Positions 26,236 through 60,942 are shown, counted from the stretch's first letter. The stretch is DNA of 64,000 bases from an uncultured bacterium (GCA_937996685.1 CALKUP010000002.1:23003-87002); one strand, 5' to 3'. Program-made: numbers and translations. The notes: generated by a model from the sequence alone, not told the origin.

Positions 26236-27363
26236 TTATGTTTTTTGAAATCGACCATCTGGGAGCATCCGGATTGCGCCGGCGATCTCTAATTGGCTGA
26301 TTTCAAGAAACAGGGCGTCAGATTCATAGAATGTGCGTTCTGCGATCTCTTCAATAGACAAGGTGTGCGCGTTGTCGATGAATATAGCAAGGATAGGGTG
26401 GTGTGCCATGGGGGTAGCAGAGAGTGCGGGTGTGTGGATATCGGAGTCTCCACCAAAGCGTTCATTGAGGTAGACAATAAATTGTGAGAGTGAAGAAATA
26501 GGCGGTGTGCCAAATTCAATCAGTTGGTTTGTTCCAGCGGATTGTGTTGAGTAAATGCTACCAGGAACAGCAAAGACGTCGCGGTTTTCTTCTGCGCCAA
26601 GCCTTGCGGTAATCAGTGATCCGGATTTTTCCGCAGCTTCAATAATAAGAATGGTTTGGGATAGCCCGGCGATAATCCGATTGCGCAGCGGGAACCATTC
26701 TGGTCGCACACGGCTATTCGGTGGATATTCCGAAATGATCAAGCCGTCGTGTTCAATAATTGATTCGCCGAGCTGTGTGTTGCGCGGTGGAGTAATGTGC
26801 GTGATGGGAGAGCCGAGCACGGCAATGGTTGGTAGCGTTTCTTTCAGCGCAGCACGATGTGCAATCGCATCAATGCCGAGCGCGAGTCCGGATACAATCA
26901 CGCTGTTGAACGGGCGCATGGTTGCAATGAGGTCGTTTGCTGCTGTTTCGCCGTAGGTTGTCGGTTTGCGTGTCCCGACGACTGCAATGCGAACGGTACT
27001 GTGTAAGAGCTCTGTGTTCCCACGACAATACAATAACACCGGCGGTTCATGGATGGTCCGAAGTGTGTCGGGATACGCCGAGTCAGCCGGGCAGAGTGTT
27101 GTGATTCGGCTGGCTGCAAAGTCAGAAAGGATGCGCTTGCTGTCTTCTATTGAAATGCTCGTTTGTTGTTGAAGTAGTCGGTTGATGCGTTTTGTTGTTG
27201 CTTTTGAGACGCGTTGATAGTCCCGACGCTTCATTGTCCAAAGTATTTCTGGGTCTGGATTTTTTTGATAGAGCCGCGATAAAAATGGCAAGTCATCGAT
27301 ATGCATTTGTTGCAAGGCATGCAGCTGCGCATGAGTGGAAATAGTACACATAAAAAAACACAT
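26236..27363 (-). CDS. dprA: DNA processing protein DprA/Smf
   Basis: Rossmann-fold DprA motifs VSGLALGIDAIAHRAAL and the C-terminal domain. The start may be an internal Met. Confidence 0.75.
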   Translation of the reverse strand: MCFFMCTISTHAQLHALQQMHIDDLPFLSRLYQKNPDPEILWTMKRRDYQRVSKATTKRINRLLQQQTSISIEDSKRILSDFAASRITTLCPADSAYPDTLRTIHEPPVLLYCRGNTELLHSTVRIAVVGTRKPTTYGETAANDLIATMRPFNSVIVSGLALGIDAIAHRAALKETLPTIAVLGSPITHITPPRNTQLGESIIEHDGLIISEYPPNSRVRPEWFPLRNRIIAGLSQTILIIEAAEKSGSLITARLGAEENRDVFAVPGSIYSTQSAGTNQLIEFGTPPISSLSQFIVYLNERFGGDSDIHTPALSATPMAHHPILAIFIDNAHTLSIEEIAERTFYESDALFLEISQLEIAGAIRMLPDGRFQKT

Positions 27364-32255: not shown

Positions 32256-32342
32256 TGCGTTTTTTGGTGTTTTTTGGTACAACAGTGCCGCGTCATGCTC
32301 ATTGAAAAACCTTCACAAACCCTTCGGGGTGGGAGCTACATC

Positions 32343-33347
32343 ATGGGATCGTTCCTCAAAAAGAGTGTGTGGATGCTCTTCGCATCCGCGGTGTTCATCC
32401 TTGTCCTGTGCGGACTGATCGCGCTGTCCCTTGTCTTTTCCGGACTGATCGGGCTGACGATCGTGATGAGCGGATCGCCGGAGTCCCTGAACTGGCTTCA
32501 GAAGCCCTGGCACGACTACATCGCGTTCTTTCGCGCCCGTCTTGGGCAGACGAGTGAGATCATCGATGAAGTTACCGGATCTCGTTTGTTCAACAAACAG
32601 CTGTCAACGATCATCGCAGCACTACATGGAACAGTCGAGAACTTCTTCGACATTCCGCACGCGCTATACAGACTCCCTGGGCCATGGGGCTTTGTCTTCA
32701 AGGCTGAATTGGACGTCTGGTATCTCAGTTGGATGATGTGGCCGATGAAAAAAATCGGCGGGGTCCTCTTCTTGAGTCGCGAAAATCGTGAGCTTGCCAA
32801 GAAGGCGCTCGGTAGCGTTCAAGTGCGACTCGGCTCTTTTCTCATCTTCATTGATGGGCATAAAGCGCGCGAGAGTTCGTTCCATGCTGCCTTGCGTGTG
32901 ATCAGCAAGCTTGTACAAAAAGACTTGCTTGATCGACAGACGTTGGTGTACTGGGATTTGCTGCTGCATACACCGCGCGTTGAAGGATTGCTTGCGCTCA
33001 TAAACGCAAATCTGAACAGCAATCACGTGTTCATGTTCGCGACATTCCGCAGTCCCCGCAAAAAATCGAACATGTTCCTGGACTTGTGGCGCATGACCAC
33101 GGAGCCGTTTCACGTTGTGACGTGGATGATTCCGTATGATCCGCGAGACTTGGGTTGGTCCGCAGATCAAAGCTTCGACAAAGAATGCTTTGGTGCGCAG
33201 TTGATCATGTTCGTCTTGCAGACCGCGTTTCCACGGCTGAAACGGGCAGGGGTTGAAACGGCCTACGAAATGGGCTATCGGGCGCCGCCCGACATTGTGA
33301 AGGCGTACCCCGACCTGTTTGACGAAACGGGATTGCCTCGCGCATAG
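32343..33347 (+). CDS. Hypothetical membrane-anchored protein encoded in a GC-rich segment
   Basis: Likely start MGSFLKK at 32343 (the ORF track begins at 32274). N-terminal TM helix. GC content visibly above its surroundings. Confidence 0.4.
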   Translation: MGSFLKKSVWMLFASAVFILVLCGLIALSLVFSGLIGLTIVMSGSPESLNWLQKPWHDYIAFFRARLGQTSEIIDEVTGSRLFNKQLSTIIAALHGTVENFFDIPHALYRLPGPWGFVFKAELDVWYLSWMMWPMKKIGGVLFLSRENRELAKKALGSVQVRLGSFLIFIDGHKARESSFHAALRVISKLVQKDLLDRQTLVYWDLLLHTPRVEGLLALINANLNSNHVFMFATFRSPRKKSNMFLDLWRMTTEPFHVVTWMIPYDPRDLGWSADQSFDKECFGAQLIMFVLQTAFPRLKRAGVETAYEMGYRAPPDIVKAYPDLFDETGLPRA

Positions 33348-33435: not shown

Positions 33436-36400
33436 TTATTCCTTTTGATTTGCGTGTGGAGAGCACAATCGAACAGTTTCTTGCAATGTTTTCATCCAGT
33501 TGTCTCCAAGATATGTTGTGAGCGCACGTGCCTTGAATGCAAGATTGCCTCGTTCGTATATGCGTTCCCATGCATCCGGAAGATCAGGCAAGGCTTCATT
33601 TGAAGAGAGTGTAATACGTGGACTGCTCAAGCGATTAACATCGTTCGGGTAATCAGTTGTAATAGCAATCAGCGTTGACTTGCTGGCGATAATTTTTAAT
33701 AAGACAATTTCCAATAAGCCAGCAACATCTGGGTGAAGACTCGTTCCTTCCCATAAGCGTTCTTGTTTCATGAGCTCTGCTTGAATATCAGACAACTCAT
33801 CTTCGTCTCGGGCATTACTCACTTCTTGATACAAACGAATGCGTTGTTCAATTTCTGGAACACACTCTTCGGGAATGCGTCCTTCTAGTGGAACGTCAAT
33901 TGCAACTTCGCGAATCGTTGCTGTTTCTTTGCCTTGTAATTGCGCAACTGCAGAATGGAGCAGCCGAACATAGAGGTGGAGGCCAATTTTACTGGTGTGG
34001 CCATGCTGCGCTTTCCCGAGCATATTGCCGACACCGCGGATTTCCATATCACGCATCGCGAGCTCAAAGCCGTCACCGAGTCCACTCGCAGATTGCAGCG
34101 CCAGAAATCGAGAGCGCACATCGCCATCAAGTTGTTTTTCTTTGTAGAAAAAATAGGCGTATCCTTGTTCTTTTGAACGTCCAACGCGGCCTTTTAATTG
34201 ATAGAGTTCTGATAATCCAAAACGGCTGGCGTCTTCGACAATCATGGTGTTGGCGCTCGCGATATCCAGACCATTTTCAACAATGCTACTGGCGAGCAAA
34301 ACATCGAGTTGTTTTGTATCAAACGCGTGCATCACATCAGCGAGTTCTTTTGGTTTGAGTTGACCATGCGCAACGCCGATTCGAACAGCGTCTCCGAGGA
34401 GTGCTTGGAGTTCAATGCGTCGGCGTTCAATGCTTTGTACGCGATTATAAACATAATAGACTTCGCCGCCGCGTGCCATTTCTCGTTCAACAGCGCTGAT
34501 AATGGTTGCGTTATCTTGCGGAACAATGCTGAGTTCAACAGCGCGTCGCAGTTTTGGTGGTGTGAGAATTGTGCTGATTTCTCGGATTCCAGAAAGGGAT
34601 AAGTGGAGTGTTCGGGGAATTGGAGTGGCGGTCATCGTGAGCACATGAGCTTGCGCTCGCATTGCGGTTAAGGCTTCTTTTGCGCGCACACCAAAGCGTT
34701 GCTCTTCGTCAATGACAATGAGTCCAAGTTTTTTAAATCCAATGTCCGCACTGAACAATCGATGTGTGCCGATCACGACATCGACTTTGCCTGAATGCAG
34801 TCCTTTGATGACATCGTGTTGTTCGGCTTTGGTTTGAAAACGAGAGAGGCTCGCGACATTCACGCCGAGGCTGCTCAAGCGCTCTGCAAATGTATCCGCA
34901 TGTTGTTGACACAAAATAGTTGTTGGCGCGACAACAGCAACTTGATAGCCATTGAGTACAGCGCGAAAGCTTGCTCGCAATGCAACTTCCGTTTTCCCAA
35001 ACCCGACATCGCCGCACAGCAGACGATCCATTGGCTTGTCTTGTTGCATGTCGTGAAAAATTTGCTCTAACGCATCGTTTTGATCAACGGTGAGGTCATA
35101 CGGACACGCGTCATCTAATCGTTGTTCTTGCGGGTCAGCGACAATGTGATGTCCGGTTGCTGATTCACGTCGTGCATAAATATCAAGCAGTTCTTGCGCG
35201 ATGCGCGCGACATCTTCTGATGCTGTTTTGAGGGCGGTGTTCCATGAAGCGCCGGAGAGCGTGTTCAGTTCTGGTTGTTCTTCGCCGATGTATTTATCAA
35301 GTCGATCAGCCAGCTCAACCGGAACATAGACTTTGTCACGTCCAGCATATTCCAATACAAAATAATCACGCATCATGCCGTTGATTTCTTGATTCGTCAT
35401 GCCGGCAAACCGCGCAACACCATGATGAATATGCACAACGTAATCACCAACGGACAATTGTTGCATGAGCGCGCGTTGCAATTTCTTGCTCGCTTTTTTT
35501 TGTTTTTTTGCCGATAGTCCGATATTGCCGTCAGTGAGACACAAAAGCGGTGAGTCGGCGTCATCGTACATAAAACCGCTATCGATGCCATCAATTTCAA
35601 CAATATTTTTTTCGCTGAATGAGGCTTCGTCGGTTTGAATAAATTGCTGGAGCGCTGCTGTGTCTTGTGTGAACAATATCAGTGATTTGGTGCTGTCGAT
35701 ATCAGCGAGTAATTCATCACGACGGAGATGATATGATTTTGGTAAGCGATACGGCGGATTGACGACGCTGCCATTTTTTTCTTCTGGAACAGCGAGTCTG
35801 CTTGCGCGAATGAGTATGTTTTCAGTCAGGCTATTTTCTGGTAAATCAGTATCGAACAACAACACAGCGACATGCGGCGGGATGTAATCAAAAAATGTAC
35901 TGCGTCCTTTGCTGTTTCGTGGTGCAATTTTGAGTGGCAAAGAAAAAGGCGTTGACTGTCCGTTATGATCAACTGTCGCAATGCTCTCAACAGAGTCGCC
36001 AAAAAAAGACAGGCGATAGAGTTGATCGATGTGAATATCAAGAATGTCGCCGCGAACAGCAAACGTTTCGGCACGTGTTGCGGTTGTGTCACGCTCGAAA
36101 CCGCTGTCGACAATTTTTTCAATCAAGGTTTGCAGTGAGAGTGTGTCATCAATTTGCACATGAATCGTTTGTCGGTTGAGAGTTGCGGGAGCTGGAAGGA
36201 GTGCGTGTTCAATCGTTTTTTGATCTGCAACAACAATGTCATATTGTGAGAGATGTGGCAGGGTTTGAATTTCACCATTCCATTCAAGAATCGTTGGATG
36301 GCTACGTTCTGGGTAAAAATGCGGCAACAGTCGAGCAATGATATGTCGCTCTGATGGGTGCGCGGTAATGACAAATAACCCGTTTTGGAACAGGGTAGGG

Positions 36401-36477
36401 GTGGCTTTGATGTAATGCGCGAGACTCGCGGCATTTGGAATCGTACCGATTGATTGTGGAAAAAGAGGATGTTTCAT
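33436..36477 (-). CDS. mfd: Transcription-repair coupling factor Mfd
   Basis: Superfamily 2 helicase motifs (GDVGFGKTEVA, DEEQRFGV), an RNAP-interacting domain and a TRCF C-terminal domain; 1013 aa. Confidence 0.8.
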   Translation of the reverse strand: MKHPLFPQSIGTIPNAASLAHYIKATPTLFQNGLFVITAHPSERHIIARLLPHFYPERSHPTILEWNGEIQTLPHLSQYDIVVADQKTIEHALLPAPATLNRQTIHVQIDDTLSLQTLIEKIVDSGFERDTTATRAETFAVRGDILDIHIDQLYRLSFFGDSVESIATVDHNGQSTPFSLPLKIAPRNSKGRSTFFDYIPPHVAVLLFDTDLPENSLTENILIRASRLAVPEEKNGSVVNPPYRLPKSYHLRRDELLADIDSTKSLILFTQDTAALQQFIQTDEASFSEKNIVEIDGIDSGFMYDDADSPLLCLTDGNIGLSAKKQKKASKKLQRALMQQLSVGDYVVHIHHGVARFAGMTNQEINGMMRDYFVLEYAGRDKVYVPVELADRLDKYIGEEQPELNTLSGASWNTALKTASEDVARIAQELLDIYARRESATGHHIVADPQEQRLDDACPYDLTVDQNDALEQIFHDMQQDKPMDRLLCGDVGFGKTEVALRASFRAVLNGYQVAVVAPTTILCQQHADTFAERLSSLGVNVASLSRFQTKAEQHDVIKGLHSGKVDVVIGTHRLFSADIGFKKLGLIVIDEEQRFGVRAKEALTAMRAQAHVLTMTATPIPRTLHLSLSGIREISTILTPPKLRRAVELSIVPQDNATIISAVEREMARGGEVYYVYNRVQSIERRRIELQALLGDAVRIGVAHGQLKPKELADVMHAFDTKQLDVLLASSIVENGLDIASANTMIVEDASRFGLSELYQLKGRVGRSKEQGYAYFFYKEKQLDGDVRSRFLALQSASGLGDGFELAMRDMEIRGVGNMLGKAQHGHTSKIGLHLYVRLLHSAVAQLQGKETATIREVAIDVPLEGRIPEECVPEIEQRIRLYQEVSNARDEDELSDIQAELMKQERLWEGTSLHPDVAGLLEIVLLKIIASKSTLIAITTDYPNDVNRLSSPRITLSSNEALPDLPDAWERIYERGNLAFKARALTTYLGDNWMKTLQETVRLCSPHANQKE

Positions 36478-36571
36478 TCAAAGAGTAGCTTCTTTATATA
36501 TGAAGTTCTAGAGAAAGGCAATCTATTCGCACTTTACGCGCCGCTCTATTTTTTATATCGTACACATATCT

Positions 36572-37309
36572 ATGAAGGATGCGACCATTACATTTGCAGG
36601 TCATTGTACAATCGGAGAGCATGTGACTCCTGTGCAACAACAAACGATTCATGATGCGCTTCAACGGGGCACTGATCTTGGTATTGTTGTAAATGATATT
36701 GACTTAAAGCGTCGTCTTCAATTTTATCAAATCGGTGGCAAAGAGATGGTGATTCGGCATTATGGGAATCGAAAAAAATGCGGAACAACAAAAACATTGT
36801 GCGAGCTGCCAGATTTTAAAAAAATTCCAGAATTGATTGATTGGGGTTTTTATGATGATGCTGTAGAAGTGCTCCGTACAGCAACAGATGATATTGATAC
36901 AACACTACGAACGCAGGTTGTCCCGCGGGCAATTGCAAAACAACTCACAGCGTATGCATTATCATTATCTGATGTGCGGGTCTATACAGAGCGGTCGTTG
37001 CGGAATGACGCACGTCGACATTTGCGCTCTTCAGTGAAACCGGAGCGGTCATGGAGGCCACAGCTAGAAGTCGTTGGTGCGCTTGATAATGTTCAAGCGG
37101 CGATGACAGGAACACCAGTGTGTGGAGCAATTCTTCTTTCATTATATGAGCAGCTTGCGCAGGCGGGATATCGTCATTGTGTGCAATTATATGCTGAAGG
37201 CGATCGAGGTCCGTTAGAAAATGCTAGCGGGCTATATAATAAGCTGCGTGTAGCGTTTCCGAGTGATTCGCGGTGGGCATTAGATATTGAGACAGCGTAT
37301 TATGTGTAA
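36572..37309 (+). CDS. Hypothetical protein
   Basis: Long ORF in an otherwise uncovered interval. No recognisable motifs. Confidence 0.35.
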   Translation: MKDATITFAGHCTIGEHVTPVQQQTIHDALQRGTDLGIVVNDIDLKRRLQFYQIGGKEMVIRHYGNRKKCGTTKTLCELPDFKKIPELIDWGFYDDAVEVLRTATDDIDTTLRTQVVPRAIAKQLTAYALSLSDVRVYTERSLRNDARRHLRSSVKPERSWRPQLEVVGALDNVQAAMTGTPVCGAILLSLYEQLAQAGYRHCVQLYAEGDRGPLENASGLYNKLRVAFPSDSRWALDIETAYYV

Positions 37310-37369
37310 GGAATTGCAGGTGATGCGCGAAGGCTTGTGCTGTATTTTTTATATAGAAGTGGTTTTGTA

Positions 37370-37450
37370 ATAAAAAAAGTGCCGCTGGAAACAGATGCAG
37401 AGTGAACGCATGGGAGCATTCGACTCGTTGTCTGTTTCAAACGGCGGCGG
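37370..37450 (-). terminator. Rho-independent terminator downstream of metK (minus strand)
   Basis: Long imperfect inverted repeat GCCGC..GAAACAGA / TCTGTTTC..GCGGC, followed on the minus strand by an 8-nt T-run. Confidence 0.5.
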
Positions 37451-37479
37451 TGAGGCAGGTGGCTCTCACCCGGCTGTGA

Positions 37480-38640
37480 TCAGTCGAGGACCAATTTCAG
37501 GGCTTCGGCCTGGTCGGTCTCTTCCCAGGTGAACCCGGGGCGGCCAAAGTGACCGTGCGACGCCGTCGCGCGGTAGATCGGACGCTTGAGCCGCAGATGA
37601 TCGACCAGCGCGGCGGGCTTGAGCGGGAAGATCTCACGCACAGCGGCGGTCAGCTTCTCGTCCGAGACGTTGCCGGTGCCGAAGGTGTTGACCATGACGC
37701 TGACAGGCTCGGCGACGCCGATGGCGTAGGCGACCTGGACAAGCGCGCGGCTGGCGTACCCAGCGGCCACGATGTTCTTCGCGACGTAGCGCATCATGTA
37801 CGCAGCGGAACGGTCCACCTTGGACGGATCCTTGCCAGAGAAGGCGCCGCCGCCGTGGCTGCCGTGACCGCCGTAGGTGTCGACGATGATCTTGCGGCCA
37901 GTCAGGCCCGCGTCACCCATCGGACCGCCGATGACGAAGCGACCGGTCGGGTTGATGAAGTAGCGGGTGTTGCTGTCGAGCAGGTGCGCCGGGATCGTGG
38001 ATTCAATGACGTACTTGATGATGCTTTCACGCAGGTCATCGCTCGTCACATCGTCGCTGTGCTGCGAGGAGACGACGACGCTGTCGACGCGCGCGACCTT
38101 GCCGTCGCGGTACTCGATGGTGACCTGGGTCTTGCCATCGGGCCGGAGGAAGGGGAGCGTGCCGTCGCGGCGGACAGCGCTGAGCTTCTCGCTGAGGCGG
38201 TGCGAGTAGTAGATGCTCGCGGGCATGAGCGTGTCGGTCTCGTCGATCGCATAGCCGAACATCATGCCCTGATCGCCAGCACCTTGCTCGCTGTAGAGAC
38301 CTTCGCCTTCGTTGACGCCCTGAGCGATGTCCGGCGACTGCTGCTCCACTGCGACCAAGATGGCGCAGGTGTTGCCGTCGAAGCCGGTGCCGGTGTGCGT
38401 GTAGCCGATGTCGCGGACGACCTCGCGGACGATGGTCGGGTAGTCGACCCTGGAAGTTGCGGTGATCTCGCCAGCGACCAGCACGAAGCCGGTCTTGACC
38501 GCGGTTTCGCACGCAACGCGCGCGTTCGGGTCACCAGCAAGGTGAGCGTCGAGGATGGCGTCGGAAATGTTGTCGCAGAGCTTGTCCGGATGTCCTTCGG
38601 TGACGGACTCGGACGTGAACAGGTAGTTCTGGAGTGCCAT
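37480..38640 (-). CDS. metK: S-adenosylmethionine synthetase
   Basis: MetK motifs [13 protein letters not shown] and [19 protein letters not shown]. Probable true start [11 protein letters not shown] at 38640, with SD AGGAATAAAGG upstream. The coding sequence is about 65% GC, unlike its surroundings. Opposite-strand ORFs 37549-38664 and 38036-38512 are high-GC artefacts. Confidence 0.85.
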
Positions 38641-38821
38641 GTGGCCTTTATTCCTCTGATGTAAAGACAAAAAACGCAGTTGGTTTGCGTCCTCCGTCGA
38701 TTGTGAACTTCCGGTCTAAATCGCTGTAGATGACAGATGTCATCGTTTCAGCTGCCAACAACTTGGATCGGATGCCACCAGTGTAGCAAGTTCTTTTCAG
38801 AAGTCAATAATGACTGTATTG

Positions 38822-39142
38822 CTATGATTCCAACGGAAAGCCAGCCGTGCTCCACGCGCTTGTTCCGCCTTTGACATTCACGACATGTTTCATTCCAGTG
38901 CGGACACAAAAGGCCGTCGCAAGCATACTCCGTGAGCCAGATGCGCAGACAATATAGACCGGTGTTTCTGATTCAAATTCTTGTACACGCGCTTGAATTT
39001 CATTTGATGGAATATTTGTTGCGCGTGGAATATGCCCTTCGGCAAATTCTTCAGGCGAGCGCACATCGATAATCCGAATCGCTGGATCTGCTGTGTGAAG
39101 GTCATGTAACTCTTGGATGGTAATGGTGTTGATGCCGAACAT
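38822..39142 (-). CDS. Single-domain rhodanese-like sulfurtransferase
   Basis: Rhodanese fold with the active-site Cys in CASGSRS. Confidence 0.65.
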   Translation of the reverse strand: MFGINTITIQELHDLHTADPAIRIIDVRSPEEFAEGHIPRATNIPSNEIQARVQEFESETPVYIVCASGSRSMLATAFCVRTGMKHVVNVKGGTSAWSTAGFPLES

Positions 39143-39389
39143 AGTTTCTCTAAATAATGCTGTATTTTATGCGCTAGAGTATAGCATAGATGATGTTCTT
39201 TCTGTAACACTCCTTGACAAACCGGCAGTGGCATGTTATTCATAATCGATTCTTTCTTCTGGTTTTATGCGTGGTGGACTGCGCATGTGAGCTATCTATA
39301 GATCCTATCAGGGAGCTCGAGCTATTGAAGAGGGAAACAGGAGTTTTTGAAAGATCGAATGATCTAAAACTCTCTCAATAGTTTAACCA

Positions 39390-40778
39390 GTGAGACAATA
39401 TATAATGACAAACGAAGAAACAACTTTCGCTGATCTTGGTGTGCACCCAGCGATTACGGCAATTTTAGACCGTAAAGAAATTACAAAACCGACACCAATT
39501 CAAGCTCAAAGTATCCCAGCGTTATTGCAACGTCAGGATGTGCTCGGAATTGCACAAACCGGAACCGGAAAAACACTCGCGTTTTTATTGCCAGTGTTGC
39601 AATTGATGTTGACACAAGAGCCAGATAAACGAAAACGCTTTGAACAAGTGTTGATTATGGTGCCAACACGTGAGCTTGCGTATCAAGTCAAAGAAACCAT
39701 GATGTGGTTTGAAAAAGAGTTCCGTATTTTTTCAACTGTGATCGTTGGTGGTGAAAGTATCGGCAAGCAAATTAAAGAAGTGAAGCGTGGTGTGCAAGTC
39801 TTAATTGCAACTCCAGGTCGCATGATCGATCATTTGCAGCAAGGAACGATTAAATTACGTAATACAAATACCGTGATTTTGGATGAAGCAGATCGCATGT
39901 TCGATATGGGTTTTGCCCCACAAATCGCTCGTGTGTTTGAATATTTGCCAAGTGCAGAAGAGCGACACACATTGCTGTTTTCAGCGACAATGCCAGATTC
40001 AGTGGTTCGTTTGATTCGTGAGCAAATGAAAGAGCCTGTGCGAATTGAAGTATCTGTTCAAGGTTCAACCAATGCTGATGTATCACAAGAAATTGTTGTA
40101 TTAGACAATGCGCATCGTCAAGACGCGTTATTGGAATTACTCAACGGAACAGATGATGCAGCGTTAGTGTTTTCACGAACGAAGCATCAAGCGAAGAAAT
40201 TGCGCCAATTTTTGAAAGATAAAGGCTTTAAAGCGGAAGAATTACACGGAAATTTGTCTCAAGCGCAACGAAAACGAGCAATTGAGGCTGTTCAAAAGAA
40301 ACGGTCTCGCATCTTGGTTGCGACAGACGTTGCTGGTCGTGGAATCGATATTCCCCACATCGGACTTGTAATTAATTACGAATTGCCTGATAATCCAGAG
40401 GATTACGTGCATCGTATCGGACGGACTGGCCGGGCAGGAAGAACTGGACGCGCCGTCTCATTCGTTCTCACTGATCAACAAGATCTCTTACAACAAGTTC
40501 AACGTTTGATTAACGATCAAATTGCACAAACACATTTGGAAACTGTTCCAACTGCGCAACTGCAACAAGGTCGTGGTCGTTCAGGCGGCGGCGGATATCG
40601 CGGTAACAATCGTGGTAGTCGTCCGTTCCGATCAGGCGCTAGTCGTGCGCGTTCTGGAAGTCGTCCATCATTTTCAAGTGGTGGTAGTCGCTCCGGAGGT
40701 TCACGTTCAGGCGGCGGTCGACGTTCATTTTCATCAGGCGGCGGAAATCGTTCACGAGCTCCACGTCGCGATGCATAA
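39390..40778 (+). CDS. DEAD-box ATP-dependent RNA helicase with Gly/Arg/Ser-rich C-terminal tail
   Basis: Q-motif/PTPIQ, Walker A GTGKT, DEAD, SAT, HRIGRTGR, and a C-terminal RGG/SGG repeat tail. Confidence 0.85.
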   Translation: MRQYIMTNEETTFADLGVHPAITAILDRKEITKPTPIQAQSIPALLQRQDVLGIAQTGTGKTLAFLLPVLQLMLTQEPDKRKRFEQVLIMVPTRELAYQVKETMMWFEKEFRIFSTVIVGGESIGKQIKEVKRGVQVLIATPGRMIDHLQQGTIKLRNTNTVILDEADRMFDMGFAPQIARVFEYLPSAEERHTLLFSATMPDSVVRLIREQMKEPVRIEVSVQGSTNADVSQEIVVLDNAHRQDALLELLNGTDDAALVFSRTKHQAKKLRQFLKDKGFKAEELHGNLSQAQRKRAIEAVQKKRSRILVATDVAGRGIDIPHIGLVINYELPDNPEDYVHRIGRTGRAGRTGRAVSFVLTDQQDLLQQVQRLINDQIAQTHLETVPTAQLQQGRGRSGGGGYRGNNRGSRPFRSGASRARSGSRPSFSSGGSRSGGSRSGGGRRSFSSGGGNRSRAPRRDA

Positions 40779-40824
40779 TGCATGAAGTAAGAGAAGGTAT
40801 TTATTAAGTTAGTATTCTATTTTT

Positions 40825-41076
40825 ATGGCAAAAAATCTTTTTGTCGGAGGCATCGCCTTCAGTTCAACAGACGAATCGTTGCAAGCAGCGTTCGAACAAG
40901 CAGGAACAGTGGTTTCAGCGAAAATTATTATGGATCGTGATACAGGTCGCTCCCGCGGGTTCGGTTTTGTTGAAATGGGTTCAGAAGAAGAAGCACAAGC
41001 TGCTATCCAAATGTGGGATGGTCAAGAAATTGACGGCCGCGCTGTTGCAGTCAAAGAAGCTCAACCTCGACAATAG
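40825..41076 (+). CDS. RRM-type RNA-binding protein
   Basis: RNP-2 LFVGGI and RNP-1 RGFGFVEM. Confidence 0.75.
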   Translation: MAKNLFVGGIAFSSTDESLQAAFEQAGTVVSAKIIMDRDTGRSRGFGFVEMGSEEEAQAAIQMWDGQEIDGRAVAVKEAQPRQ

Positions 41077-41227: not shown

Positions 41228-41422
41228 ATGGCTCAAGACAAGTGCCCTGTGTGCAAGAAGGTGCACAAAGGCAAGCTGCCGAAGGGTTGTGCAAGAATAA
41301 TCAATGCGGTTCGTCATAGTCGACACCCGCAAGATGAGGAGGGGACCTGCAAATTTCCGGGCCCTAATTCAGGGAGGGGTTCACGCCCGGCGGGCCACTC
41401 AAAGCCCGGTGAGAAAAAGTAA
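41228..41422 (+). CDS. Small Cys-containing (zinc-ribbon-like) hypothetical protein in a GC-rich patch
   Basis: GGAGGA Shine-Dalgarno 6 nt upstream of the ATG. Product has CPVC...C...C and is basic. Family not recognised. Confidence 0.3.
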   Translation: MAQDKCPVCKKVHKGKLPKGCARIINAVRHSRHPQDEEGTCKFPGPNSGRGSRPAGHSKPGEKK

Positions 41423-41943
41423 TTTTCGCACAAGCGGGGAGCTGCATAAAGCGTGGTGCGGAGCGGAGTGTGAAACCTGTTCTGTGCCGCGTCGTTTTTT
41501 TATAGTATAGACAGCGATTGTGTATATGTCGCGAATACGGCTTGACGACTGTTCAGGCATCTGGTAAATACGTTGTTTTGTCGCAAGGTGCGGCACTAGC
41601 ATATTCGAGTGACTCGCATTGCCCAATCGGGCGAAGGAGGGAGCTTGATCGGTTTCGAGCGCATGGGTCGTTGCTGGAAGACGGGCGTCGCTCAGGCGGA
41701 GGACGCCAAGAAGGCGAAGAAGCCGGAGCCGCGCAAGCCGCGGTACGTCCGGCGCGGAGCTGGTCGCGGGGTGCGGCTGTAGTAGCCCGCCAGTAGCTCT
41801 TTTTATGGGGTGGCAGAATTATTCTTTTGCCACGCCCCTTGTCCTGAGTAGAACATCTATGCTGATGTTCAGTTGAGAGCAAGGAAAAAGCTGTGTTCTG
41901 TAATAGTGTCAGCAATAATCTTGTGGTACACTATGTTCTATCT

Positions 41944-54003: not shown

Positions 54004-55497
54004 TTATAGTTTTTTGAGAAACTGGTAAATCTCGACCATCGCCCATGTGTCCATTTTACAATAGGCGAGTAGATCTTGTGCAATTTGCTGCTTTTCCTCC
54101 TCGTCGATCGATTTTGTCATCATTCGCTCCCAACGCTCGCTGGCTTGGTCACCTTTACGGATGTTCAATTCTTTGTAGGTCAGACTTGGAATAAGGACTG
54201 GGAGTATATTTTTAATACTTGATTTGCCTTTGAAATCAGGATCGACGTAAAGGTTGTTTGTGAAAATTGTTTCAAGGTCAAACATGGTTTCGTTCATTTC
54301 CTCAAAGAATCGTACGTGTTCAGGATGTAGTTGCGCCAGCTTTCGGTTTTGCTTTTTTTCATAAGCCGCGTGCCATGAAACGGCAGTACCTTTTTCCGAC
54401 ATATCTGCAACAAGTTGCTCAACTAAGGGTTTTGTTACTTCAGATTGTTTTTCTGTGATAAGGAACTCCGTATGCTCGACTGATCCGTCTTCATGTAAAA
54501 TGTGGAGAGAGTATTGAAACGGAACATGCTCATATGGCCCAAAACCATCAAAAAGGGGAATAGCTGCAATAAAGCCTTCATAGTCCAAGAAGTAGAGGGG
54601 AAATTGAAGTTCATTGAACATTTCTCGAATTGCCAAGCCATCAACAAAAGGCCTCTTCTGAATGTATGAAGAGATTTGGAGCTGTTGTCGGTCATTGAGT
54701 TTTTCTTCAATGACTTCTTCGAGCGTAAATCTTCCTTCATCGACCCAGTTCATCAGTTTCTTTTTGCTGTTTCCAATGCGATAGAGGTCGTGGATTGAGT
54801 ATTCAGGAACGACGGGGTTTGAATAGGCAAAGCTTGAACAATGAGCACTACGACCCTTGTATACACAATCACAACCGCTTTGTTCGTCCATTGCGAGCCA
54901 AATTTTCATTTCTTCCATTTCTCCCAAAACCTCAACTTCTACGTCTCGGATTTCATTGCTTATGTCTTCTGTAATAAACAGTTGATCATAATCAAGCTCG
55001 CCGTGCTTTCGGTATTCAGAGTTGAGATGTATGACTCCTGTTTTGACAACTCTTGCGCCACATTTTTGAATGACTTGCTTCTGAAAAGCCAAGTCTCTTA
55101 CATGATTACCAACGCCTGTTTTCTTTACTTCATTTGTTGCTTTGACTTCATAGAGCTCCCATCCGTTCAATCTGTTATCCCAAACTAAAACATCTGCACG
55201 AATAAAGAAGTTTTCAAATACGAATGTCCCTTGAAAAATTACCCTTGCCTTATCCGCAATAAGAAGGTTTGTATCTTCTATTGCTGTTGAACCGTGCGTG
55301 CTCACGAGAACACCATCAGGAAAGAGTTTGCGAGCAGCTTCGTCGGCGGCGTTTCCTTCTTCGATGATTTTCTTCTCAAAGTCAGATAGCTCAAAATCCT
55401 CAAAGAGTTCAGGTTTGTATTTTTTGAGCCACAGGTTTTTTCGGCAAAAACTGTACTCAAGGTAGTCGGTTTTTGTGATTTGCATAAGCTTAGCCAA
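54004..55497 (-). CDS. DUF2779-like two-domain nuclease (Cas4/RecB-like PD-(D/E)xK domain with Cys cluster plus C-terminal DEDDy-type exonuclease-like domain)
   Basis: N-terminal D...ELYEVKAT (PD-ExK-like) with Cys at SFCRK and a downstream CDCVYKGRSAHC cluster (Cas4-like C-x2-C-x5-C). The C-terminal region has YFLDYE (Exo I-like DxE) and YCKMD (Exo III YxxxD-like). Confidence 0.45.
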   Translation of the reverse strand: MAKLMQITKTDYLEYSFCRKNLWLKKYKPELFEDFELSDFEKKIIEEGNAADEAARKLFPDGVLVSTHGSTAIEDTNLLIADKARVIFQGTFVFENFFIRADVLVWDNRLNGWELYEVKATNEVKKTGVGNHVRDLAFQKQVIQKCGARVVKTGVIHLNSEYRKHGELDYDQLFITEDISNEIRDVEVEVLGEMEEMKIWLAMDEQSGCDCVYKGRSAHCSSFAYSNPVVPEYSIHDLYRIGNSKKKLMNWVDEGRFTLEEVIEEKLNDRQQLQISSYIQKRPFVDGLAIREMFNELQFPLYFLDYEGFIAAIPLFDGFGPYEHVPFQYSLHILHEDGSVEHTEFLITEKQSEVTKPLVEQLVADMSEKGTAVSWHAAYEKKQNRKLAQLHPEHVRFFEEMNETMFDLETIFTNNLYVDPDFKGKSSIKNILPVLIPSLTYKELNIRKGDQASERWERMMTKSIDEEEKQQIAQDLLAYCKMDTWAMVEIYQFLKKL

Positions 55498-55538
55498 GCA
55501 TACTTGAAAATGATTGTAAACTAAAGTAAAGTCTCGGC

Positions 55539-56711
55539 ATGTTTATTAAAGACCCCGAAAAACATTTGTCAGATCAGGCTTTTTTCAGCTATATCAAGTT
55601 TTTTGACTATGTCGTTTTGAAAAAAGATATTGATAATTATGACGATGATGGAGCATTTAGTATGCGTGATGTCAGCTTAGGTGGTGAGGATCAGGCAATG
55701 GTTTTTAACCGTATCTTGGACGGGGCAATAGCTGTACAGGCATCAGTGATTGCCAAGAAAGGTTATCGTTTTGATGATCAGATGAAGGAAACAAAGGAGG
55801 GGCTAAATGAGAAAGGTACAGATAGTGAAAAAAAGCGTATCTCAAAACTGATCGCATCCATAGAACGTGGAAAGGCTATAACAATCCAAGATGCGGCTGC
55901 ATTGTCATGGTTTTGGTTTGAAGTATACGATAGCATTCGTTTTACTCCTGAGTTGTGCAAAGTAAGCCCTGAAGTCAAAGACAATTTACAATCTGCTATT
56001 GAAGGTTACTTAGATGATTTCATCAATGATAAACTTTCAATTTCAAAAAAGAATTATTATCGGTTTGAGCGTCAAAAAGCCATTTTGATTAAACTGATAG
56101 AAGAAGATAATAAAATTGCAAAGTATGGCAATAATTTTATCATTCGCGAAAAAATAGGCCGTGATGGCTCACTTGAGCGAGCGCCTGATTTTTGCATTGT
56201 TCAAACGGTTTACGCTTTGCAGAAATTAGGATATTTGAAAGTCATGAACGTCTGGGAGGAAAGACAATATAAAGACAATGCCTATGACGATTTGGTTCCC
56301 TTTGTGAACGTCAACATTCTGCTTGATGAAATGTTTATTGAGGAAATCAATAATAGCTATAAGAAAGGAAACCCAAAAAACGTATTTGAAAAATTTGATG
56401 AAAAGCGTGGGGTCTTATTTTTTGCAGGGAAGGAAATTACCATTTCAAAGAAAGGGAAAGAAACGGATGCGATTTTATTGATAAAGACACTCCTTAAAAA
56501 AGAACCGCAAACGTGGAAGTACAACGATGAAATTTTAGAAGATTGGGGATATACGGAAGATGACATGGAAAGGCTTCCGAAGAACAAGGTATATTTTGCT
56601 GCTCAAAAAGCAAATCAGGCGATTGCTTTGGTGGCTCAAATTGATGATTTTATTGAATGTAATACGACAAAAGCGCGTATAAACCCGAAATACATAAAAG
56701 TTGATGGATAA
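55539..56711 (+). CDS. Hypothetical protein (island cargo, unknown function)
   Basis: 390-aa ORF, AT-rich codon usage like the rest of the island. No recognisable motifs. Confidence 0.4.
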   Translation: MFIKDPEKHLSDQAFFSYIKFFDYVVLKKDIDNYDDDGAFSMRDVSLGGEDQAMVFNRILDGAIAVQASVIAKKGYRFDDQMKETKEGLNEKGTDSEKKRISKLIASIERGKAITIQDAAALSWFWFEVYDSIRFTPELCKVSPEVKDNLQSAIEGYLDDFINDKLSISKKNYYRFERQKAILIKLIEEDNKIAKYGNNFIIREKIGRDGSLERAPDFCIVQTVYALQKLGYLKVMNVWEERQYKDNAYDDLVPFVNVNILLDEMFIEEINNSYKKGNPKNVFEKFDEKRGVLFFAGKEITISKKGKETDAILLIKTLLKKEPQTWKYNDEILEDWGYTEDDMERLPKNKVYFAAQKANQAIALVAQIDDFIECNTTKARINPKYIKVDG

Positions 56712-56932
56712 TTGATCAATTTTCGGCAACATTTACAAATACCCTTTCATTTAGTCTGAGGCTACAACCTCAGATTTTATGATTAGCAAACAAGAAGCCA
56801 AAATCAATCAGCTGCAAGATGCGGGCCATGAAATGGTCGATCAGGGCACGCTTTTTGAGTTTTTTGCATTGCTTCTCAAAGTCGATCAGAGGGTGAATCC
56901 ACATCTGTATAATCAACTTAAACAAGAAAATA

Positions 56933-58060
56933 ATGATTGATACAATTATCTTAATCATCCCAAGAGACAAGTTTATCTTTCTCGACCTTTCGAATGAAGG
57001 GGTGTCGAATTGGCATCTACAAAGCCACACCGACGCATACATGAAGTACATAAAAAATCCGAAGGTGCTCGCTAAGCGCACAGGCAAGTATTACCCACGC
57101 CTCACTGAGTATGTTCGCAAGTATGGTAACGATCGAAGTGTCAAAATTGAACTCTCGCTCCCAAAATTGATCTTTCTCAATAATCTTGATGAGCTGGAAG
57201 ACAAGGATTTCGATAGAGTTGTAGAAACACTACAGAGTCGTTTGAAGGAAATGGGAGTAGTAGTTGAACGTAAAGACATTGAAGTAGCAAAGGTCGGCAG
57301 CGTTCATTTTTCTAAAAACATTTTACTGCAAGATGGGTACACGTCGAACTATGTGATTTCTGAAATCGGCAAAATCGATTTACGAAAAACCTTTGACTTC
57401 GCCCGTGCGCGGTACATCAATGACGGTCAAAGTCTTTGTGCGCATACCACTTCACATGAGTTTGTTGTTTACGATAAAATCGCTGATCTACATAAAGGTC
57501 AAAAACGAGCGATTGATAAAGATCAAACTTCATTTCAACTCAGTTTATTCAAAGCCGAGAAAAAAGTATCGTACGAAGTCGTGCGTTTTGAAATTCGTTT
57601 GGCAAAGAAGCAAAAAATGAACAGCGTGCTCACAAAAATTGGTTATGAAAAAGACCCGATATTCAAAGATGTATTTAGTAGCGACCTGAGCATGAAAGTT
57701 GTGAGCCTGTATTGGGAGGGTGTTGTACAGACTAGAAATATCGGTCTATTTGCCACAGAAATGAGCAACAAGGAAAAATTGAGAAAAATTTACAAGCATT
57801 TTCCGAACATCAAACCTGCGCGTGCAATTTACCTTGTTGGCTTATTGAATCTTGCGCGAGAGCAGTACGGAATGGGAGAGTTACGTTCGATAGTAAGCGC
57901 AAAAAGTGGAGACAGAACGTGGTATCGAATAATGTCAGATTTTCGGAGTGTATCGGAGTTGATCGCACTACAAGATATTCGAGGCTGGGTGGGGCAAGTT
58001 AATTCTGCATTCACAAAATACAGACCACTTCGCCTGCAATTGCTAAGTAAAGAAAAGTAA
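56933..58060 (+). CDS. Hypothetical protein (island cargo, unknown function)
   Basis: 375-aa ORF. No catalytic motif identified (I looked for HUH/Rep motifs and found none). Confidence 0.4.
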   Translation: MIDTIILIIPRDKFIFLDLSNEGVSNWHLQSHTDAYMKYIKNPKVLAKRTGKYYPRLTEYVRKYGNDRSVKIELSLPKLIFLNNLDELEDKDFDRVVETLQSRLKEMGVVVERKDIEVAKVGSVHFSKNILLQDGYTSNYVISEIGKIDLRKTFDFARARYINDGQSLCAHTTSHEFVVYDKIADLHKGQKRAIDKDQTSFQLSLFKAEKKVSYEVVRFEIRLAKKQKMNSVLTKIGYEKDPIFKDVFSSDLSMKVVSLYWEGVVQTRNIGLFATEMSNKEKLRKIYKHFPNIKPARAIYLVGLLNLAREQYGMGELRSIVSAKSGDRTWYRIMSDFRSVSELIALQDIRGWVGQVNSAFTKYRPLRLQLLSKEK

Positions 58061-58069
58061 AGTATAATT

Positions 58070-58837
58070 TTGACTATGGTAAATACATTCAAAGGCGTGG
58101 CTTACGAGATTTTGAAAGAGGTGGGTAAGCCCCTTCACGCAGATGAGATTACGAAAATCGCTCTCGAGCGAGGGTGGTTAAACACAGCAGGAAAAACACC
58201 AGCGGCAACGATGAACGCTCAGCTTGTCGTTGATGTAAATAAAAATGGTGAAAAGTCTCTTTTTGTGAAGACTGGACCGAGTACATTTGCTCTCAATTCA
58301 GAAGTTCGATTAGCAAAGAAAACTAGCCTTACAGAAGAGCAGGAAGAAAAGGAGTATGCGGTTTCCAGTACCTTAATGTCGGTTCAAAAGGGAAACATCG
58401 TTGAGGCGCGTGTATCAGAATTAGTGTTATTATATGGAGCGAACTTGTCATGTTATCGGCCACTGACTGATGACGAAGGAATTGATCTGATTGTAAAAGA
58501 AAAAGGGAGTCTCAAATCCATTTACATTCAGATTAAAAGCAACTTTAGTGATGATTTTGGAAAACCGTTTGTGGCAACAGTTCGGAACAAGAGTGTAGTC
58601 GATAATTATGCTATGGCGTATGTGTTCTGTTTATTTGATACTGGAAAAGCTGATGTTCACGATTATATTTGGTTTGTGCCCGCCCCTGATTTTATTCGCA
58701 TGGCAGGTAAAGACAAGAATGATTTACTTGGTTTTGTGTCTGGCAAACAGAAGAAGAGTAGCAACAAGTGGGATGCTTTTATGATTGATAAAAGAGATTT
58801 AGCGAATAGAGTTATGGAGCAATTAAAACGCATATGA
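58070..58837 (+). CDS. HARE-HTH domain fused to a PD-(D/E)xK restriction-endonuclease-like domain
   Basis: N-terminal A.EIL..G.PL...EI......G........P.AT....L motif with ...FALN (HARE-HTH). C-terminal D-EGIDLIV-KEK PD-(D/E)xK core (Mrr-like). Confidence 0.5.
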   Translation: MTMVNTFKGVAYEILKEVGKPLHADEITKIALERGWLNTAGKTPAATMNAQLVVDVNKNGEKSLFVKTGPSTFALNSEVRLAKKTSLTEEQEEKEYAVSSTLMSVQKGNIVEARVSELVLLYGANLSCYRPLTDDEGIDLIVKEKGSLKSIYIQIKSNFSDDFGKPFVATVRNKSVVDNYAMAYVFCLFDTGKADVHDYIWFVPAPDFIRMAGKDKNDLLGFVSGKQKKSSNKWDAFMIDKRDLANRVMEQLKRI

Positions 58838-59010
58838 CAACAAAAGATTTTTACACCGCACAAGAACTCGCCGAAAAGTTGGAGGTAAATATCATGACGA
58901 TTTACCGATACATAAAGGCTGGAAGGCTTAGTGCTTACAAGATAGGGAAGGAGTTCCGAATAGCAAAAAAAGACTTTGATACATTTTTGAAAAAAGCAAG
59001 CACAAAGTGA
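58834..59010 (+). CDS. Excisionase/MerR-like HTH DNA-binding protein (58 aa)
   Basis: ATG overlaps the upstream stop (ATGA). TIYRYIKAGRLSAYKIGKEFRI matches the HTH_17/Xis-type helix-turn-helix. Too short to appear in the ORF track. Confidence 0.5.
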   Translation: MTTKDFYTAQELAEKLEVNIMTIYRYIKAGRLSAYKIGKEFRIAKKDFDTFLKKASTK

Positions 59011-59014
59011 ACGT

Positions 59015-60940
59015 ATGACAACAACACAACAAATTCTCAATAAAATTTTCAAAAACCCCGAGCAGGACCTTTTGATGTTTGATGACTTGTCCAAGATAGA
59101 CATCTACGAAAAAGATGAAGGAAAGTTCTACATCAAGGCTATTTCAAAAATGGATGAAGAGAAAAAAGTTTATGATGCTAAAACTGGAAAAGGCGCTCCT
59201 GAAGAAATTGTTCGACAGCTGTATCTTGTAAAACTCACAAAGCATTACAAGTACCCCAAAGACCTTATTGAGCTTGAAAAGCACGTCAACTTTGGACGTG
59301 AAATAAAGCGTGCAGACATTGTTGTGTACCGACCAGATGGCATTACACCTAAAATCATCATTGAAGTAAAAGCTCCTAATCAAGAGAATGATGTACAGCA
59401 ATTGAAGTCATATCTAAATGCTGAAGGCGCGCCTGTGGGTGTTGCGGTAAACGGCAAAACTCGCCTCATTCTTTATCGTCCATACCCGAAAGATTTTGAT
59501 GACACATTGGATGACATTCCAGCTTCAGATGAAGAGGTTGAAGACGTGCTTGCAAAACGAAAGACCCTGAACGACTTGAGAGAAGATGACCTCAAGGAAA
59601 CTATCAAAACTCTTGAAGAGCTTGTGCTTGCAAACTCAGGACACGATAGCTTTGAAGAAATCTTCAAGATCATATACGCCAAGCTTTTTGATGAAAAAGA
59701 AGCATTAAGCCGTCCAAATCAAGAGCTTCACTTCAGAAAAAGTCCGACAGGAAAACCCGAAGAAACAAAACGCATCATTGACGAACTTTTTGAAGAAGCA
59801 AAAGCAGAATGGTCTGATGTGTTTGAGCGTACTGATAGGATAAAGCTCAGTCCTGAGCATCTTTCTGTGTGTGTCGGGGAACTTCAAGATGTTCGATTGT
59901 TCGGGGCAAACCTGCGCATTATTGATGAAGCATTTGAGTATCTCTTGCCAGATGTTGCTAAAGGCAAGAAAGGTCAATACTTTACACCGCGCGTTGTCAT
60001 CGATATGTGTGTTCAGATGATGAACCCGCAAAAAAAAGAATACGTTATTGATACTGCTTGTGGGAGCGCTGGTTTTTTGGTGCATGCCATGCAGTATGTT
60101 TGGAAAAATTTACCCACTCTTGAAGCACGGAAAGAATATGCAAGTAGATATTTGTGGGGTGTAGATTTTGACGAGAAATCAACAAAAATTAGCCGCGCAA
60201 TTATGTTGATTGCGGGAGATGGCAAGAGTCATATTTTCAAGTCATCTTCATTAGATACCCGAGAGTGGCCTGAGCGTTTCAAAAGTGAATTACAAGATTT
60301 GAATCTTGTACAGGAGTTTGATGACTATGAGCAAAATCGAGAGAATCGAGCTACATTACAACACCTCGAATTTGATGTGCTTCTCGCTAATCCGCCATTC
60401 GCAGGCGAAATTAAAGAGAAGCATCTCTTGACTCAGTATGTTCTTGGTAAAAACAATAAAGGCAAGCTTCAAAATAAGGTAGAGCGACACTTGCTCTTCA
60501 TTGAACGCAACCTTGAGTTTGTAAAAGCAGGTGGTCGTTTAGCGGTTGTGTTGCCACAAGGCATCTTTAACAACACAAGCCAAGAGTATGTTCGCAAACA
60601 CATAATGCGGAAAGCGCGCATTCTTGCGGTTGTAGGGCTGCATGGAAACTCTTTTAAGCCTCACACAGGAACAAAGACATCAATCATCTTCTTGCAGAAG
60701 TGGGCAGATGAGGAGCTTGATGCAAGCGGTAGTCCGAAGGTTGCTGACTATCCGATTTTCTTTGCTACTCAAAAGCAATCGTTCAAAAATAACAGTGGCG
60801 ATTACATCTTTGAGAAAGACAAGGGCGGTCAAATTGTTAAAGACGACAACGGTAATCCTAAATATCTAAGTGACCTTGATGAAATCGCTGAAGCGTTTGT
60901 GGCTTGGGGCAAAGAGCAAGGTCTTAGCTTTCTGAAATAA
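59015..60940 (+). CDS. hsdM: Type I restriction-modification N6-adenine DNA methyltransferase subunit with N-terminal HsdR_N-like (PD-(D/E)xK-like) extension
   Basis: Motif IV NPPF (LANPPFAG), motif I region DTACGSAGFL, and the HsdM helical domain. The N-terminal ~170 aa contain D-IVVY...IIIEVK resembling the HsdR N-terminal nuclease-like domain. Confidence 0.7.
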   Translation: MTTTQQILNKIFKNPEQDLLMFDDLSKIDIYEKDEGKFYIKAISKMDEEKKVYDAKTGKGAPEEIVRQLYLVKLTKHYKYPKDLIELEKHVNFGREIKRADIVVYRPDGITPKIIIEVKAPNQENDVQQLKSYLNAEGAPVGVAVNGKTRLILYRPYPKDFDDTLDDIPASDEEVEDVLAKRKTLNDLREDDLKETIKTLEELVLANSGHDSFEEIFKIIYAKLFDEKEALSRPNQELHFRKSPTGKPEETKRIIDELFEEAKAEWSDVFERTDRIKLSPEHLSVCVGELQDVRLFGANLRIIDEAFEYLLPDVAKGKKGQYFTPRVVIDMCVQMMNPQKKEYVIDTACGSAGFLVHAMQYVWKNLPTLEARKEYASRYLWGVDFDEKSTKISRAIMLIAGDGKSHIFKSSSLDTREWPERFKSELQDLNLVQEFDDYEQNRENRATLQHLEFDVLLANPPFAGEIKEKHLLTQYVLGKNNKGKLQNKVERHLLFIERNLEFVKAGGRLAVVLPQGIFNNTSQEYVRKHIMRKARILAVVGLHGNSFKPHTGTKTSIIFLQKWADEELDASGSPKVADYPIFFATQKQSFKNNSGDYIFEKDKGGQIVKDDNGNPKYLSDLDEIAEAFVAWGKEQGLSFLK

Positions 60941-60942
60941 CT

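Follow-up and report, generated by a model that had tools for sequence, protein, structure and literature searches.

We sought to explain how metK, the gene for S-adenosylmethionine (SAM) synthetase, came to be far richer in guanine plus cytosine (GC) than the DNA on either side of it in a stretch of 64,000 nucleotides (nt) from an uncultured bacterium (GCA_937996685.1, CALKUP010000002.1:23003-87002; here called the window, with positions counted from its first letter). An earlier note on this DNA had regarded the gene as a likely replacement from a high-GC, actinobacterial-like donor. Is metK foreign, from which lineage would it have come, and did it take the place of an older copy? The evidence favors, with a probability that we put at about 0.88, a recent transfer of approximately 1.2 kb, comprising metK and a few dozen bases 3' of it, from a GC-rich bacterium related to the Myxococcota into the AT-rich chromosome of a member of the Patescibacteria, or candidate phyla radiation (CPR). 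The segment 37442..38646 would have come from a donor of about 66-69% GC and would have been inserted near mfd, with a rhodanese gene on one side and a hypothetical gene on the other, in a CPR bacterium that has Kerfeldbacteria as its nearest named relatives. The genes on which the argument turns are as follows; GC3 denotes GC at third codon positions.

37480..38640, minus strand: metK, SAM synthetase of 386 amino acids (aa), probable xenolog of Myxococcota-like origin, from its open reading frame (ORF), Pfam matches and composition
38822..39142, minus strand: host rhodanese-domain gene directly upstream of metK, partner of the 5' junction, with matches to the NCBIfam rhodanese, GlpE and PspE-like families; GC3 0.439
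36572..37309, plus strand: host hypothetical gene (an ORF of 245 aa), convergent with metK, partner of the 3' junction; GC3 0.329
33436..36477, minus strand: mfd, transcription-repair coupling factor, marker of the host by its Patescibacteria/Kerfeldbacteria homologs and gene order

Composition and product of metK

The composition of metK was set against that of the 45 remaining ORFs in the window. The gene possesses 64.4% GC, with 62.8%, 44.7% and 85.8% at the first, second and third codon positions (GC1, GC2 and GC3), against means of 43.7% GC (standard deviation 3.4, maximum 53.3) and 39.4% GC3 (standard deviation 6.6, maximum 66.5) among the others (z = 6.1 for GC and 7.0 for GC3). GC1 and GC2 rise only mildly (z = 1.9 and 1.3), so the compositional signal sits in synonymous sites. 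The within-amino-acid codon frequencies of metK correlate at r = 0.95 with those of the other genes on L002, a contig of 67% GC throughout that carries a related metK, and at r = -0.06 with those of the 45 host ORFs. An index resembling the codon adaptation index, calculated against host usage, was 0.535 for metK compared to 0.720 +/- 0.046 for host genes. The composition and codon usage of the gene are therefore foreign to the host and typical of a candidate donor.

The question arises whether metK could instead be native, with its high GC produced by selection (codon bias in a highly expressed, conserved gene) or by biased gene conversion. As a control we used 73 unrelated metagenome metK loci, 57-76% relatives among the matches listed from the MetK scan, and it was noted that metK is slightly richer in GC than its flanks in these loci as well (mean +0.030, standard deviation 0.034, maximum 0.107). 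The excess in the window, +0.183, lies above all 73, and the sharp contrast described in the earlier note is thereby confirmed. Conserved or well-expressed host genes are low in GC3 (TypA 0.335, TopA 0.375, Mfd 0.412), and the codon usage of metK, uncorrelated with that of the host, fits a Myxococcota-like genome. Furthermore, the 89% nucleotide match to the metK of a 67%-GC genome cannot be vertical, because the host Mfd is at most 49% identical to that of any named genome. We consider a native origin exceedingly improbable.

The limits of the GC-rich DNA were then located. Sliding-window GC, a check that the earlier note had proposed, steps at both ends of metK, and in 300-nt windows it moves from 0.47-0.48 to 0.59-0.67 and back to 0.47-0.49 across the gene edges. 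A two-boundary maximum-likelihood segmentation of 36000..40000 placed the GC-rich block at 37442..38646 (64.8% GC inside and 43.7% outside; log-likelihood gain 75.9), so that its 5' edge is no more than 6 nt from the start codon and at the other end it runs on for 38 nt after the stop codon. The jump at the gene edges was thus correctly seen, while the 37370 start previously given to the GC-rich region is about 70 nt too far out. The flanks, there called AT-rich, are only moderately so (44-48% GC). Spurious antisense ORFs lie over metK, as had been reported, with one of 371 aa at 37549..38664 on the plus strand, and out-of-frame ORFs of 158 aa and 92 aa are present besides; the long antisense ORFs are by-products of the high GC.

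metK starts with ATG at 38640 and stops with TGA at 37482..37480 on the minus strand, and a 10-codon extension to an upstream TTG is probably spurious. The product contains the N-terminal, central and C-terminal domains in order and at full length, each far over its Pfam cut-off: PF00438 at residues 5-103 (profile positions 1-99 of 99), PF02772 at 118-235 (1-120 of 120) and PF02773 at 237-373 (1-137 of 138). It can be aligned end to end with Escherichia coli-type structures at 529-531 bits, and in the alignment to one of these, 7r2w, the HPDK, GAGDQG, [21 protein letters not shown] and [20 protein letters not shown] motifs are all kept. The gene is intact and under purifying selection. Judging from this conservation and from a ratio of nonsynonymous to synonymous divergence (dN/dS) of 0.11 relative to the L002 gene, MetK would be predicted to form SAM from ATP and methionine (EC 2.5.1.6) and to supply it to the cell's methyltransferases, several of which are encoded in the window (SAM-dependent enzymes at 12601..13284, 13281..13952 and 59015..60940). 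In its three-domain architecture (PF00438/PF02772/PF02773) and its active-site motifs this is a bacterial MetK of the E. coli type; the protein is ordinary, and the oddity is the genome around it.

A second compositional outlier was encountered at 32274..33347 on the plus strand, where a gene of 53% GC and 66.5% GC3 encodes a membrane-anchored hypothetical protein of 357 aa. It has the second-lowest similarity to host codon usage and belongs to no Pfam or NCBIfam family. This gene may be another acquired one.

Donor and recipient lineages

The relatives of MetK were drawn from its best 120 protein matches, all of them bacterial MetKs of about 386 aa. The closest, P0001 (97% aa identity), is encoded on the contig L003, which is considered with the junctions below. 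It is followed by P0002 and P0003, both 94% identical to the window's protein and encoded on GC-rich contigs, and then by relatives at 82-87%, some of which are named Myxococcota, Deltaproteobacteria or Pseudomonadota. The metK of L002 matches that of the window with 94% identity in aa and 89.1% in nucleotides, the latter in an alignment that runs over query positions 660-1821 where the coding sequence (CDS) occupies 661-1821, and the DNA outside the gene is unrelated on both sides. Synonymous divergence (dS) between the two genes is 0.41, so L002 is not itself the donor.

We found that the surroundings of these donor-like genes are shared. The order pyrG-(rpoN)-hpf-metK-(orf-sdhA-sdhB)-gltA is present on the contig of P0002, on L002 and on two further contigs, L090 (GCA_006226595.1) and L091, with L002, L090 and L091 at 66-69% GC. 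Because this order recurs, metK is considered native and syntenic in the high-GC lineage. The best named matches of the SdhA on L002 are Myxococcota (76-78%) and Polyangiaceae (74%), and five contigs are common to the MetK and SdhA match lists. In a neighbor-joining (NJ) tree of MetK, which holds no Patescibacteria MetK, the window protein and P0001 are sister to P0002 and P0003 within a clade that includes a Myxococcota-named MetK. As far as such a tree reaches, metK thus falls within a clade that is foreign to the host and has metK as a native gene.

The earlier note's claim of a foreign gene from a high-GC donor is therefore upheld by the 89.1% match, the codon correlation and the nesting in the tree. 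The MetK phylogeny that it had called for does place the gene in a high-GC clade, one that contains Myxococcota; the actinobacterial donor that it had proposed did not hold up. The GCC/GGC/CGC-rich codon usage on which that proposal drew is common to all high-GC bacteria, Actinobacteria included. The names found among the relatives are Myxococcota, 'Deltaproteobacteria' and Polyangiaceae, with no actinobacterial name in the best 120 protein matches. Proteobacterial MetK structures score higher than those of Mycobacterium (3rv2, 3s82 and 3tde, 442-452 bits, compared to 513-531 for E. coli, Neisseria and Burkholderia, and 475 for human MAT2A), so that MetK does not fall with the actinobacterial proteins. 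The metK genes of Streptomyces plasmids are 68-69% identical in nucleotides, as against 89% for L002. An actinobacterial origin is scarcely credible on these grounds.

One further protein was examined as donor-like and set aside. P0004, encoded at 3265..5058 of L001 (ENA ERZ28599224), is a MetK of 597 aa that is just 63% identical and comes from a 58%-GC genome; it stands near the top by bit score because its central and C-terminal domains are duplicated.

The window itself is ordinary chromosomal DNA that carries topA, folC, dprA, queG, mfd, typA, relA/spoT, parB, a class II ribonucleotide reductase gene and tRNA genes. Its Mfd has an identical entry on record, on a contig of 241 kb. The best named relatives of this Mfd, at 48-49% identity, carry the labels 'Patescibacteria group bacterium' and 'Candidatus Kerfeldbacteria bacterium', compared to 39-41% for Deltaproteobacteria Mfd. 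A contig of a Kerfeldbacteria metagenome-assembled genome (MAG; contig L087, GCA_016182555.1, 44% GC) has the same orf-queG-mfd order as the window, with aa identities of 44%, 61% and 48%. Because of the Mfd matches and of the order and identity of these genes on L087, the host is assigned to the CPR/Patescibacteria, as a distant relative of the named Kerfeldbacteria. A scan of the genome collection with Mfd returned two 39%-identical 'Deltaproteobacteria' MAGs only and no sister genome, and look-ups of the exact window Mfd, rhodanese and 245-aa proteins for other strains or an empty site gave no record. One closer relative by Mfd, P0122 (above 70% identity), is on a contig of 2 kb.

The native synteny, the nesting in the tree and the donor-like codon usage of metK indicate the direction of the transfer, with a Myxococcota-like bacterium as the giver and the CPR bacterium as the receiver. 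The transfer is recent, because the codon usage of the donor is still kept in the gene.

Junctions, possible replacement and strain differences

If metK was inserted, the junctions should be real. It was therefore of interest that L003, a contig of 1489 bp from another assembly (GCA_054403235.1), is 97.2% identical to the window in nucleotides over its full extent. L003 spans the 3' end of the rhodanese gene, the leader of metK, metK itself and 35 nt of the DNA 3' of it, where it stops. On sequence grounds it is assigned to a sister strain of the recipient, AT-rich upstream flank included. Because the junction recurs in this independent, 2.8%-divergent contig, the insertion appears real and older than the split of the strains. 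The following features were distinguished around the gene:

37442..37479, minus strand: GC-rich 38-nt tail directly 3' of the metK stop codon, inside the maximum-likelihood block (71.8% GC compared to 42.7% in the next 130 nt)
37372..37446, minus strand: long hairpin with U-run 3' of metK, resembling an intrinsic terminator (inverted repeat I5, arms 37381-37395 and 37431-37445)
38641..38821, minus strand: metK leader, the 181-nt intergenic region between the rhodanese gene and metK, of host composition (44.2% GC)
38807..38780, minus strand: sigma-70-like promoter site in the leader (TTGACT-16-TACACT with TG)
26236..27363, minus strand: dprA, DNA-processing protein A, 11 kb from metK (TIGR00732 over cut-off)

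The 38-nt tail is probably donor DNA that arrived with metK. It is present in L003 (1 mismatch in 35 nt) and does not resemble the DNA 3' of metK on L002, L090 and L091, which also differs among these contigs. The leader and the 3' end of the rhodanese gene are identical in L003 and in a third contig, L006 (ENA ERZ650239 NODE_13444, 2685 bp, coverage 1.8), and the leader is unrelated to the upstream DNA of L002, L090, L091 and L007. L006 matches window 39423..37867 (1557 nt, 1 mismatch). From a point within [11 protein letters not shown], the most conserved motif of MetK, it continues as the 3' end of an unrelated metK of the 60-64% type; its 5' end holds two small unrelated ORFs. With a switch in mid-motif, unrelated 5' ORFs and a coverage of 1.8, L006 was rejected as a recombinant strain and is probably a chimeric assembly, of a kind that conserved MetK motifs can seed. 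Its repeat of the 5' junction is weak support only.

L006 also shows that chimeric joins at metK happen, and the window could in principle be another case, a metK fragment of a co-occurring GC-rich bacterium having been stitched into a CPR contig. The end of L003 just beyond metK leaves the window's contig alone in crossing the 3' junction. Such a chimera would nevertheless need two misjoins, one at each end of metK, and a return to host DNA beyond both; the 5' junction is reproduced in L003, 2.8% divergent and from another assembly, as well as in L006; the 35-nt 3' tail is common to L003 and the window; and the host and donor flanks have no homology that might mislead an assembler. We regard an assembly artefact as very improbable.

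Several points weigh against the transfer as we describe it. Outside the window, the junctions are documented by L003 (5' junction and 35-nt tail) and by L006 (5' junction), and a small residual doubt about an artefact persists because only the window's own contig carries the 3' passage into AT-rich host DNA. No flanking repeats, integrase, transposase, insertion sequence (IS) or tRNA target were found that could explain the integration of metK, and no close phage or plasmid copy was found (the best viral MetK is 65% identical in aa and the best plasmid match 71% in nt); the gene does not present itself as the cargo of a mobile element. No sampled sequence is the actual donor, whose identity can be given at the level of the lineage only, because dS to L002 is 0.41, and 'Alphaproteobacteria' is also among the names of the 77-80% MetK matches. 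The substitutions between the window and L003, polarised with L002 as outgroup, comprise 18 GC>AT and 8 AT>GC changes, which is close to the expectation from base composition and amounts to no significant GC-to-AT amelioration. The assignment of the host is based on one searched protein (Mfd) and on local synteny.

A route that fits these observations is the illegitimate insertion of DNA that the cell had taken up. The window encodes DprA, which is consistent with the uptake of DNA by natural competence as the way of acquisition.

'Alien' genes and genomic islands flagged by GC or GC3 and codon usage are the classical signature of horizontal gene transfer (HGT) of the Lawrence-Ochman type. metK resembles them in its sharp break in GC and GC3 and in its donor codon usage, and differs from genomic islands as one 1.2-kb gene with a core housekeeping product and no integrase, tRNA target, IS or flanking repeat. 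In a MetaCHIP survey of groundwater MAGs, HGT into Patescibacteria was mostly from CPR to CPR and rather old, with a mean divergence of 23.7% and donor-recipient divergences of 3.9-34.5%; Myxococcota are absent from the donor phyla that it lists, and it makes no mention of metK (PMC12455944). metK is like the transfers of that survey in that one foreign metabolic or housekeeping gene, not obviously borne by a mobile element, sits in the streamlined chromosome of a CPR bacterium and has a co-occurring non-CPR bacterium as donor, and its 11% nucleotide divergence falls within their range. It differs in being cross-phylum, fully donor-like in its codons and almost exactly the size of a CDS. No paper linking HGT of metK with Patescibacteria was found in the literature. 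We regard this as an ordinary kind of HGT, yet an unusually clean, recent and cross-phylum instance. No concept is changed by it, because HGT into CPR bacteria is established and metK encodes an ordinary enzyme. What sets it apart is a xenolog one gene long, with 86% GC3 in a 39% genome, behind a recipient-type leader and under purifying selection. Since SAM is a central cofactor in an organism of minimal metabolism, the case bears on how reduced cells patch and maintain core functions.

Expression of the gene would begin at the promoter-like site of the host-composition leader and end at the strong hairpin terminator 3' of metK. RNA folding of 37360..37482 gave -45.4 kcal/mol (z = -5.8, with 0 of 200 shuffled sequences as stable), followed by UUUUUUU. 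The leader contains about 135 nt of predicted structure (-48.4 kcal/mol, z = -3.3 versus shuffled sequences), with a hairpin and U-run approximately 40 nt before the metK ATG. In this layout of promoter-like site, structured leader, and hairpin with U-run it is similar to metK leaders with SAM riboswitches (SAM-I/II/III/IV/V/VI). It differs from them in having no Rfam match and no homologous leaders for covariation: no relevant match at E <= 10 was found in 37300..38900, and none for a SAM riboswitch at gathering thresholds window-wide. The leader may be an attenuator, a new regulatory RNA, or simply the terminator of the rhodanese gene.

We then considered whether metK replaced an older copy in situ, the donor CDS displacing a native AT-rich metK at the same site and behind the same leader. 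The foreign DNA begins no more than 6 nt from the start codon. The leader before it has host composition, a promoter-like site and a structured 5' untranslated region, and such a host-type leader before a foreign CDS is the look expected of a retained regulatory region. Some source of SAM would also have been needed before the transfer, because SAM-dependent enzymes are encoded in the window. Against replacement, metK is absent from the neighborhood of mfd in the three relatives that have long contigs (L087, L088 and L089), though they are distant (Mfd 48-49%), and no second metK or remnant of one was found in the 64-kb window, where tblastn finds metK itself only. As noted, no known SAM riboswitch matches the leader. 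If an AT-rich gene had recombined homologously with one of 86% GC3, the crossover would be expected inside conserved motifs and not at the start codon; because the CDS is donor-like from codon 2 on, a crossover within a native gene is disfavored. Replacement in situ is possible, though on balance unlikely. The gene may just as well have been added at a new site, in a lineage without metK.

The comparison with L003 (window 38933..37445) also uncovered differences that are far from evenly spread. The two strains differ at 41 of 1489 positions, 40 of them inside the metK CDS (3.4% divergence), with one difference in 328 nt of flanking DNA (Fisher exact test; p = 8e-4 versus the CDS and 3e-5 versus third positions). 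Along the comparison the first 583 nt are free of differences, CDS 291-634 holds 16 of them, 635-975 again has none, and 19 fall in the last 64 nt. Neither the clustering nor the longest run free of differences was reached in any of 20,000 uniform permutations (P < 5e-5 each). At the C-terminus of MetK, the window, L003 and L002 each have their own combination of residues. The clustering suggests later recombination with other donor-type alleles, and by this step of the proposed transfer the patchy differences in metK between strains would have arisen by homologous exchange. Alternatively, the C-terminal tail may evolve fast, or the short contig may be a consensus of mixed strains.

A more speculative extension, and a doubtful one in our estimation, is that the xenolog marks an ongoing physical association of the CPR bacterium with a Myxococcota-like partner or host. 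metK would have been captured from the DNA of the partner by the natural-competence machinery of the CPR bacterium, with dprA 11 kb away, and would then have been overwritten repeatedly, in patches, by fresh donor-type alleles. This would explain how metK could carry 3.4% clustered divergence, 19 differences falling in the last 64 nt, between strains with nearly identical flanks. The donor lineage is a freshwater, Myxococcota-like group of 66-69% GC and, with the mosaic differences, offers a lead to a possible partner. Identification of hosts is a real bottleneck in CPR biology, and if the association were true, foreign mosaic housekeeping genes could predict the hosts of uncultured CPR bacteria.

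Other features of the window

Beside the metK locus, 39390..41076 on the plus strand encodes a DEAD-box RNA helicase whose long C-terminal tail is rich in Arg, Gly and Ser, followed by an RNA-binding protein of 83 aa with an RRM domain. On the other side, the 245-aa ORF that forms the 3' junction belongs to no Pfam or NCBIfam family. A local GC-rich patch (up to 60%) was noted at 41228..41850, with no long ORF and with spurious-looking ORFs on both strands; it includes a small ORF of 64 codons of CxxC type at 41228..41422, and no credible Rfam match was found in 41250..41850.

A cluster of low-GC genes (36-41%) extends over 54004..63878. It begins with a RecB-like or UU173-family protein at 54004..55497, and the methyltransferase at 59015..60940 is a DNA methyltransferase resembling MAD2 of the MADS system (E = 4e-86, under the curated cut-off); two large ORFs come after it. 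This cluster may be a defense island. Near the start of the window, at 2485..3267 on the plus strand, we found a gene for a heliorhodopsin of full length (Pfam PF18761, E = 9e-98), adjoining ABC exporters.

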